From Eledone cirrhosa (Eukaryota): a stretch of 64,000 nucleotides of DNA. A model generated the notes under the pieces. It did no database searches, was not told the origin of the DNA, and worked only from the letters and a program-made list of their open reading frames with translations. Positions 39,901 to 42,900 of this stretch are shown here, piece after piece (positions within the stretch are counted from its first letter, which is position 1; each line of letters begins with the position of its first letter). The stretch lies in assembly GCA_964016885.1 (NCBI GenBank), contig OZ024766.1:1488001-1552000 (forward strand). The letters are read 5' to 3'. A program made the translations under genes and the position numbers.

Positions 39901-42900
39901 CACACATATATATATATATATATATATAAAAATACATACATACTTATATATATAAATACATACATACATATACATATATACATATATATACATATATATA
40001 CATATATATATATGCATACATACACACACACACGCACATATATATATGTGTGTCGGATGGTAGTTAAGATGCTTCCATAAGCGGTATGCCGGTTGAGCAC
40101 TCTATGCCCGGAGGGTCAGATACTCCAGTGAGAGAATATGCTCCGAAATCAGGAGACGTGTCCGTCGAACCTGCGGCACCAGAATCAGACAGATCCACAC
40201 AGTGGACGCGTCTCAAGCTGTCCACCAGCGAAACAATTGTAACACACAATAAGTTGAGTTCAGTTGCATCACTGATTTTTCGTTTTATATTATATATATA
40301 TATATATATATATATATATAAATGAAGTAATTCTGTCGGAAAAGTCCAGGAAAAAAGAGTGCTCTATGTAAGTAACAGAGCTTAATAGTTATGTAATAAA
40401 CAACATAAGGCAATTATTTCATTTACCAGTGGTTTCTTAAAAGCAAACAAATTTTGCTTTCAATCATCAGAATGAAAATCAGAATGAAAATCCTTTTTTA
40501 AAATCCAATACCAATAAATACACCAGGATTTTTTCATTCTGATGATTGAAAGCAAAATTTGTTTGCTTTCAAGAAACCACTGGTAAATGAAATAATTGCC
40601 TTATGTTGTTTATTACATAACTATATATATATATAAATTGATTCAAAATATTAACAAAATAGATATTCTTGTGATCAAGTATATTTTATTATACATATTT
40701 CAGAGGTACTGAGTTAACTTCAACAGTACGTCCTCATCAGATAAAATAAGATGATGCATGACACACCCTGACTTAGTAGATGGTAAAGATTCAGTCATCT
40801 ATTGTAAAACTCATTCTTTGATGTATTCATTGACCCTTGTTTAACTTTAAAATATATATAAATATAGCAAAGAAAGGTACCGGGACCCAGTTTAAGTACT
40901 TACCTGTATGAAATTCTGACAGGCATTGATGAGGTTCAGCTGACTGGCTGGATTTTCAGGGTTATGTGTGGTGGCCTTCACACCTTGCACAATAGACGAC
41001 ATTTGGTCTGATACAGCCTGAGGGAGAGACAGAGAGAGATAGTTAAGCATACATATATATATATATACATATATATATATATATACATATATATATATAT
41101 ATATATATATATATATACATATATATATATAGTATACTCTATGTACAGTATATACTATACACTATATATATATTATATATACTCTATGTAAAGTATATAT
41201 TATACACTGTATATTTATTATATATACACTATATATACCCTATATATACTCTATATATACCCTATATATACCCTATATATACTCTATATATACTCTATAT
41301 ATACCCTATATATACACTATATTTATATATACCATATATATACCATATATATACACTATATATACACTATATATATATACTCTATATATACACTATATAC
41401 ACACTATATATACACTATATATACACTATATATACACTATATATACACAATATATATACCCTATATACACCCTATATATACCCTATATATACACAATATA
41501 TATACACTATATATACACTATATATACACTATATATACACTATATATACCCTATATACACTATATATACACTATATATACACTATATATACCCTATATAC
41601 ACTATATATACACAATATATATACACTATATACACCCTATATATACCCTATATATACACAATATATATACATGCACCTTCACCTGACAATATCAAAGCAA
41701 AGTTAATTTAGAAAGCCAAACATCAAAGAAAGCCAGGTGCGTCTTACCTTGCACTCAAAGTGCAGGTGTTGCTGTGAGACAGAGTTGGAGTTAGATTTAC
41801 CAGCAGTGTTCGCTGCACTTATTAAGTGCACTGATGCAGCGGACGTCTGTTTGGCTGCATTCTGGAAAGACGGGGAAGGTGTAATGACTGGATTGTATTA
41901 TTGCAACACACTGGCGTGTGTGTAGGTGTAGACGTGTGTGTGTGTGTAGACATGCGTGTAGACGTGTGGGGGTGGGGTATGGGTGTGTGTGTAGGTGCGT
42001 GGGAGTATGGGTGTAGGTGGGGGGTAGGTGTGTGTGTGTGGGTATGGATGTCTGTGTGTGTAGGTGTGTGGGGTATGGGTGTAGGTGTGTGTGTGTATGT
42101 AGGTGTGTGTGTGGGTATGGATGTAGGTGTGTGTGTGGGTATGGATGTAGACGTGTGTGTGTGTAGACGTGTGTGTGGGGGTGTAGGTGTAGGTGTGTGT
42201 GTGTGTGTGTAGGTGGGTATGAGTGTGTGTGTGTGTGTATATGTGTATGTATTTGTGCATGTGTGTGTATGCATGTGTGTGGTATGTGTGTGTATGTCTG
42301 TATGTATGTATTTGTGCATGTGTGTGTATGTGTGTGTGTGTATGTGTATGTCTGTGTATGTATGTGTGCATATGTGTGTGGTATGTGTGTATGTCTGTAT
42401 GTATGTATTTGTGCATGTGTGTGTATGTATGTGTGTGTGTATGTCTCTGTATGTATGTGTATATGTATGCCTCTGTATGTATGTGTGTATGCACGTATTA
42501 TTTATTTTGAGAACACAACCTTAACATAAGTATGAACAGCCCAATTACAGCCGGGTTAAAGGAAATGAAAGCCCAACGTACCTCCAATCTGTTGATGAGT
42601 TTCTTTTTAAGGGCATTACTGGCTGCTGCATTTGTTGCTGACCTCAGTTCTTCAGCTGCTATGCGGAGGTTTCCTTGTTGACTGGAATCATTGGGGTTGG
42701 AGGCGCATCCCTTGATGTGCAGAAGGGGCGATGAGGGTGGTGGGGAAAGAGATAGAAAATAGGTGAAATTAATTATGGCAGGAGGAGCCTAACATCATCT
42801 GTGTAAGGTCAGTGACAGCTGATCAGATAACAAGTACCCCAGTGTATTACTGGTACTCTGTTTTATCAAGCCCCCCGTAACAATTGTTTCTACTTTAGGC

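Follow-up and report, generated by a model that had tools for sequence, protein, structure and literature searches.

The palindrome in a talin intron of Eledone cirrhosa, which carries a hammerhead motif in each arm, is best read as a pair of 3' ends, both 5'-truncated and joined head-to-head, from a young Hydra-type Penelope-like element (PLE) that inserted into an intronic (TA)n tract, likely in one event and with neutral consequences for talin. We assign this reading a probability of roughly 0.86. The locus lies in a stretch of 64,000 nucleotides, here called the window, for which an original prediction had described the hammerheads and overlooked the identity of the arms as transposon ends. 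The family to which the arms belong, family A, may be undescribed; its architecture and the occurrence of opposite-strand hammerhead pairs are already in print. The coordinates are compiled in Table 1.

Table 1. Features of the talin intron and its insertions (window positions)
Feature	Position	Strand	Basis or details
Talin intron, 1279 nt, GT-AG	39625..40903	-	splice junction 39624/40904 in the X1 and X5 contigs
Upstream talin exon (R4 domain)	40904..41014	-	Pfam Talin_R4, PF21692, E 5e-11
Family A insertion: head-to-head 5'-truncated pLTR ends of a Hydra-type PLE (assigned by motifs) between (TA)n tracts	40320..40624	.	blastn to element reference; flanks read
65-nt 3' tail, left arm only	40320..40384	-	continues towards the ORF start in long copy L076
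Left arm, element-sense on the talin strand	40385..40478	-	inverted-repeat search; element mapping
Junction of the two truncated heads, in which the left arm's end is tandemly duplicated over 12 nt	40479..40494	.	sequence
Right arm, tail-less, antisense to talin	40495..40624	+	element match from 40495; 40531-40624 complementary to the left arm
Sense type I hammerhead motif, left arm	40417..40477	-	CUGAUGA core 40470-40464; GUA, predicted cleavage after 40424; stem I of 7 bp; stem II of 11 bp including a G-U pair; helix III ACCACUGGU
Second hammerhead motif copy, antisense to talin	40532..40592	+	predicted cleavage after 40585
Family B insertion, second high-copy PLE-type repeat	40637..40866	.	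hammerhead arm 40798-40637 (-) head-to-head with inverted tail fragment 40797-40866
Third hammerhead motif, from family B and in sense orientation to talin	40682..40748	-	helix III AUAUGUAU; AUA, predicted cleavage after 40690

Inverted arms of about 95 bp had been predicted, and the arms indeed measure 94 nt each, are 99% complementary and lie 52 nt apart. The palindrome has a folding energy of -143 kcal/mol, which corresponds to z = -28.6 relative to 200 shuffled sequences. The lone difference between the arms had been described as a G-U wobble in stem II, which is correct: the sole mismatch is position 40439, where the minus-strand motif obtains G-U for G-C. Mapping to the element reference with blastn showed that the whole insertion is bigger than the palindrome and that its tail is limited to the left arm. 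Both arms are 5'-truncated, with their heads in the centre and (TA)n on their outer sides. Whichever strand is transcribed, the antisense arm precedes the sense arm in the transcript.

Three type I hammerhead motifs were found at the locus by a motif scan of the window. The family A motif contains the conserved CUGANGA, GAAA and UH core together with three helices. A textbook type I hammerhead had been claimed for each arm; the type and the 11-bp stem II stand, stem I has 7 bp instead of 6. The label "textbook" itself could not be upheld. Canonical type I hammerheads combine a helix I of 6 bp, a helix II of 4 bp, a loop-loop contact and the pair G10.1-C11.1, as described in the consulted part of PMC4209133. 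Family A departs from this canon in the lengths of stems I and II and in its closing pair, U-A in place of G10.1-C11.1, and its helix III is a self-complementary 9-mer with a calculated self-duplex of -8.2 kcal/mol, compared with -2.2 kcal/mol for family B. Between 40300 and 40900 no hammerhead family of Rfam was matched, even at E<=10; the top entries among the 27 matches obtained were generic hairpins aligned to miRNA models, scored far under the cut-offs and were rejected. With its native upstream sequence, the plus-strand motif (40521-40600) favours a short hairpin covering the CUG of the core (-17.9 versus -14.3 kcal/mol). This predicted hairpin might serve the element as an intrinsic off state.

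Talin is encoded on the minus strand, with Pfam talin domains in all three window pieces scanned, and its closest matches are molluscan (proteins of 316-2000 aa). The spliced joint was seen in contigs of two of four sequencing runs, both of which lack an RNA designation on record; the contig of run X5 showed zero differences from the talin exons of the window. All four runs consisted of contigs, and those of repeats dominate this region. Since this joint delimits the intron, the third motif starts 155 nt below the talin donor, in line with the roughly 150 nt predicted. The same intron holds another high-copy repeat at 40040-40280, recognized by its deep contig cover. Elsewhere in the talin span, a near-complete 5S rRNA gene copy lies on the strand of talin (30169-30287, minus strand; Rfam 106.5 bits), and apart from 5S rRNA the Rfam scan of the window at the gathering threshold gave no match. 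At 308-1434 the window contains an array of ~53-nt units with a 70-77% match to its own reverse complement.

The arms of the palindrome are copies of a dispersed and young repeat. A genome search with the right arm gave 706 candidates, 40 of which were scored; among 49 matches, 33 were 100% identical over 95 nt, i.e. the own locus and 32 others. With 80 nt spanning the outer end of the left arm and the tail, 321 candidates were retrieved, with 40 matches at 98-100% identity. Six family A loci were extended by 10 kb to look for an upstream ORF. The window copy itself has no ORF, and in three of the six extended loci (L076, L078 and L080) the strand of the arm carries an ORF that is interrupted by frameshifts and whose end lies 1.4-3.5 kb upstream from the arm. 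The ORF pieces are 41-52% identical to a 728-aa database protein. With their reverse transcriptase (RT) part as query, 921 proteins of 693-2000 aa were obtained at E<=1e-20, with 42-49% identity among the best 120 of the 921, and the C-terminal part aligned with the end of one of these RT-matched proteins at 41% identity. In clusters of ESM look-alikes, RVT_1 and GIY-YIG are annotated on part of the members. Pfam gave zero matches on four PLE ORF pieces and recognized GIY-YIG in only one of six scanned database relatives; no solved structure matched the RT piece.

The Hydra clade of PLEs is defined by the motifs RWK and DKT, a CxCX5C linker, CxxC and CxH around the conserved E and N, and the lack of CCHH in the GIY-YIG core; it inserts in (TA)n targets and carries hammerheads (PMC8557442). 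The ORF pieces contain YRDD and DIVDFYP motifs as well as CxCX5C, CxxC and CxH, and have no Cys between VYE and YVG, i.e. no CCHH; RWK and DKT (in place of DKG) are present in L076 and L080. The insertions are flanked by (TA)n as for the Hydra clade, and the hammerhead motif sits in the pLTR of family A. Locus L076 has the structure pLTR-ORF-pLTR together with an inverted arm, and its tailed 5' pLTR runs on into the ORF start. Owing to the microsatellite-rich 3' UTR of family A, the distance between ORF start and 3' end is ~3.7 kb in L076 and exceeds the "generally short (<3 kb)" length of the clade, which is a tendency and not a criterion (PMC8557442). Judged by these sequence motifs, on which the clade placement rests, the arms represent the pLTRs at the 3' end of a young PLE of Hydra type.

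The closest described elements are those of the Hydra clade, for instance Hydra-1_Obim from Octopus bimaculoides (Craig et al. 2021, PMC8557442), which share the C-terminal EN, the Hydra motifs, the lack of CCHH, the (TA)n targets and a 3' hammerhead. Compared by eye with the consulted part of the supplement (PMC8557442), the protein start is similar and helix III reads acca-a-tggt in Hydra-1_Obim and ACCA-C-TGGT here. Unlike Hydra-1_Obim, which is recorded with "no pLTR", family A has a clear pLTR with a 65-nt tail, differs in stems I and II and comprises many young identical copies. With the minimal hammerheads of PLEs, as characterized in the consulted part of PMC4209133, the family A motif has in common the type I topology, a long helix II, a short palindromic helix III and the location in the pLTR. 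In contrast to these, it has U-A for G10.1-C11.1, no extra base before helix II and a helix II of 11 bp, and the two cores lie just 69 nt apart. The same paper (Cervera and De la Pena 2014, PMC4209133) reports opposite-strand minimal hammerhead (min-HHR) pairs 100-700 bp apart in Schistosoma mansoni. Non-LTR retrozymes likewise contain type I hammerheads related to those of PLE pLTRs, according to the consulted parts of PMC7229834 and bioRxiv 10.64898/2026.07.22.740005. Their motifs are arranged as head-to-tail tandems, unlike the inverted pair found here, and no tandem of the family A unit was detected in 39500-41500. A same-strand dimer is impossible at this locus because the pair is inverted.

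To describe the insertion form, 58 other loci were compiled from the 29 best arm matches and the 29 best tail matches, hits to the own locus being dropped; they are a non-random sample. An adjacent inverted arm was present at 33 of these best-matching loci and absent at 25. The 33 inverted pairs comprised 12 with two complete hammerheads, 12 with one and nine with none, which argues that the palindrome forms regardless of ribozyme content. The 5' ends scattered across reference positions 21-233. A tail-less anchor arm always had a partner reaching past the pLTR end (13/13) and a tailed anchor always a tail-less partner (20/20; Fisher p 1.7e-9), and in 32 of 33 pairs one arm stopped no later than reference position 204, whereas its partner reached at least position 260. 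The partner arms resembled one another more than they did the average of the remaining copies in all 19 pairs with sufficient overlap, that of the window included. This closeness fits a single event with two primings; later conversion between the arms is an alternative. The head-to-head palindrome is the normal insertion form of family A.

Inverted, 5'-truncated PLE copies with a one-sided tail at (TA)n targets have been published (PMC8557442 and PMC3846280, as far as consulted), and the pattern in family A, one tailed arm per pair in 33 of 33 pairs (loci L001-L060), is stricter than the "often at one end" of that literature. The head-to-head arrangement of a 5'-truncated copy with a tail at one end is shared with inverted pLTR insertions of EN+ PLEs, among them Pen2a of Adineta vaga, as far as the consulted text of PMC8557442 and PMC3846280 describes them. 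In such elements the tail is usually 30-40 nt long, in contrast to 65 nt here, and both copies at our locus measure only ~130-160 nt; since both were cut back to this length, only a miniature palindrome remains. A biochemical parallel is offered by Poseidon PAc of Anolis carolinensis, for which two RT start sites and nicking and extension of both target strands in vitro are reported in the consulted part of Frangieh et al. (2024, PMC11167929). Like family A, PAc has two 3' end points with the tail between them, an AT-rich target and a hammerhead near the pLTR end. It belongs to another clade and its ORF starts inside the hammerhead, unlike the ORF of family A, which starts ~135 nt beyond the tail end in L076 (comparison limited to the same part of PMC11167929).

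In the mechanism that we propose, the RT-endonuclease would prime two cDNAs at the target in opposite directions, each from its own start point on the RNA; both cDNAs would stop early, and their heads would then be ligated to one another. In an alternative to the two primings, the cDNA may have self-primed on an antisense template, as has been proposed for inverted PLE copies (PMC3846280, part consulted). The hammerhead, being part of the pLTR, would be doubled only when both cDNAs extend past it. In the pre-mRNA the arms are predicted to pair as a 94-bp duplex in which the sense ribozyme is enclosed. Because each end carries the usual motif of the element, the arms likely mask each other simply as a consequence of this mode of integration, and not as a switch that protects the gene.

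The neighbouring family B insertion has a comparable form. A search with the third motif returned 817 candidates, and 41 of 50 matches showed full identity across 120 or more of the 121 nt; a Hydra-type ORF was found upstream in one of five extended loci. Its inverted tail fragment (40797-40866) has no ribozyme, and no inverted partner of the third motif occurs within 3 kb. The third motif is sense to talin and unmasked, because its inverted part is only this tail fragment. A heterodimer of the two sense motifs of the intron, family A with family B, was considered and rejected (helix III duplex +0.4 kcal/mol).

Several related structures are scattered over the region. A fourth, minimal hammerhead motif at 57899-57934 (minus strand), sense to talin and ~150 nt below an exon, has a GUC site, an ACGU helix III and a 4-bp, G-C-closed helix II with an extra A; it has no inverted partner within 3 kb. 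A 190-nt palindrome of 96% identity at 57595-57784 consists of two hammerhead 3' halves and does not contain the CUGANGA core; it shows the same form of insertion devoid of a ribozyme. The core is absent as well from an older relative of family A at 22415-22645, a head-to-head pair with one tailed arm whose palindromic portion spans 22480-22645; a further copy of this relative lies near 21603-21704. TA-flanked palindromes of 91-97% at 9119-9539, 18313-18513 and 37308-37457 have no CUGANGA match and possibly represent other PLE families. Two opposite-strand hammerhead pairs of two other families are located in upstream talin introns (G000:C27:1572222-1572728 and 1594024-1594382).

The original prediction held that the antisense arm is transcribed first and can pair with the sense ribozyme. 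This expectation was supported by the folding calculations: pairing is predicted for the whole sense ribozyme, the core is paired with a probability of ~1.0 in the pre-mRNA, and folding of transcript prefixes indicated that it is captured on emergence. The further assumption that the ribozymes are active found no such backing, as PLE motifs of the same type are inactive as monomers in vitro in the consulted part of PMC4209133, and poor cleavage would by analogy be expected here. A single min-HHR of S. mansoni did not cleave and dimers showed low activity (PMC4209133 and PMC6765202, parts consulted; the dimer work is that of Lunse et al. as cited in PMC6765202), and cleavage by the PAc ribozyme required protein, as stated in the consulted part of PMC11167929. 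The isolated 75-nt left arm adopts the hammerhead at its minimum free energy (-12.1 kcal/mol), so activity of the monomer is conceivable from the model. When the partner arm was removed and the native flanks were kept, the predicted probability of stem I was 0. Since a solitary motif of the dimer type probably has little cleavage activity, the masking is probably incidental; it is predicted to be complete and appears to be unneeded.

The palindromic architecture had also been suggested to be what lets active ribozymes persist in introns. The geometry is the normal insertion form, often without complete ribozymes, and an unmasked sense hammerhead, the third motif, resides in the same intron; both findings speak against this suggestion. 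To examine it more widely, 464 kb around the window were scanned with a descriptor that demands a near-palindromic helix III, and 22 motifs were obtained as compared to 0, 0, 0, 0 and 1 in five shuffles. The talin coding span, with its N-terminal exons located via talin motifs, extends from about C27:1605460 to 1439730. It contains 11 motifs: three head-to-head pairs, four solo sense motifs and one solo antisense motif. The other 11 lie outside talin, the only gene that an exon-finding heuristic identified with confidence over the 464 kb. Sense intronic hammerheads had been expected to occur preferentially in palindromes, which this count does not bear out, as the solo talin motifs are four sense versus one antisense, a small sample. 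For the four sense motifs among these, stem I is predicted to form in context with a probability of just 0.00-0.13; their weakness may be the sole reason for their being tolerated, which leaves room for a stronger family that needs masking.

A modified version of this idea keeps the transposon as the maker of the palindromes and places selection afterwards: unmasked sense ribozymes in introns would be purged more often, and masked ones would become over-represented in genes. We consider it improbable. Its appeal lies in the complete and co-transcriptional masking predicted here, in the share of palindromic insertions, 3 of 8 inside the talin span versus 1 of 11 outside (Fisher p 0.26), and in the depletion of non-LTR retrozymes from Xenopus introns reported in the consulted part of bioRxiv 10.64898/2026.07.22.740005, by analogy with which selection against intronic hammerheads may exist. 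The solo motifs of the talin introns nevertheless point in the opposite direction (four sense versus one antisense; one-sided p for sense depletion 0.97, n=5), an unmasked sense motif persists 155 nt from the donor in the same intron, and the min-HHR monomers of PLEs are inactive in vitro (PMC4209133, part consulted). Our search for literature in which intronic hammerheads are masked by an inverted copy or unmasked through editing, which worked by title and start of abstract and had most subscription journals outside its reach, returned none.

Far less credible is a switch in which ADAR editing frees the sense ribozyme, which would then cut the talin intron and tune talin expression. The near-perfect 94-bp hairpin is a likely ADAR substrate, hyper-editing in octopus is very high and the Penelope of a lizard is heavily edited (PMC5625713, part consulted). 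The energies nonetheless make unmasking unlikely: the gap between duplex and ribozyme, in favour of the duplex, is 62.7 kcal/mol without editing, and when all 38 A of the masking arm were edited in the simulation, a nearest-neighbour approximation without inosine parameters, it decreased to 58.0 kcal/mol with I treated as G or to 22.4 kcal/mol with I as non-pairing. The proposal that editing unmasks the ribozymes is hence not supported, with a simulated gap of at least 22 kcal/mol, and the sense core itself has five editable A, which would all escape with a chance of 0.03 at 50% editing per site. Moreover, the insertion is a young repeat that is identical at dozens of loci. Of the 55 family copies counted, 20 carry the U allele that creates the wobble, so that the wobble is not a locus-specific tuning. 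The arm difference was also considered as a relic of editing and rejected: read in element sense, the two arms differ as C versus U and not as A versus G, and this difference is common in the family.

A MITE-like DNA transposon or a palindrome with terminal inverted repeats that arose by chance, the resemblance to hammerheads being incidental in either case, resembles the locus in being short, TA-flanked and palindromic, and is highly improbable in view of the asymmetric ends with a tail on one arm, the variable 5' truncation, the 25 of 58 loci without an adjacent inverted arm and the retroelement ORF in long copies.

A genome-wide safety catch, by which buried sense copies in introns would be retained and unmasked, protein-assisted or trans-dimerising ones purged, the hairpins forming a large class of ADAR substrates in a cephalopod, seems to us slightly less probable still than the purging of unmasked copies discussed above. 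If masking were a selective filter, it would explain the tolerance of self-cleaving motifs in long introns, and the roughly 700 search candidates of family A and 800 of family B are enough for a count of strand bias with annotation. For the PLEs themselves, the strict pairing of a tailed with a tail-less arm provides a quantitative constraint on their mechanism of integration.
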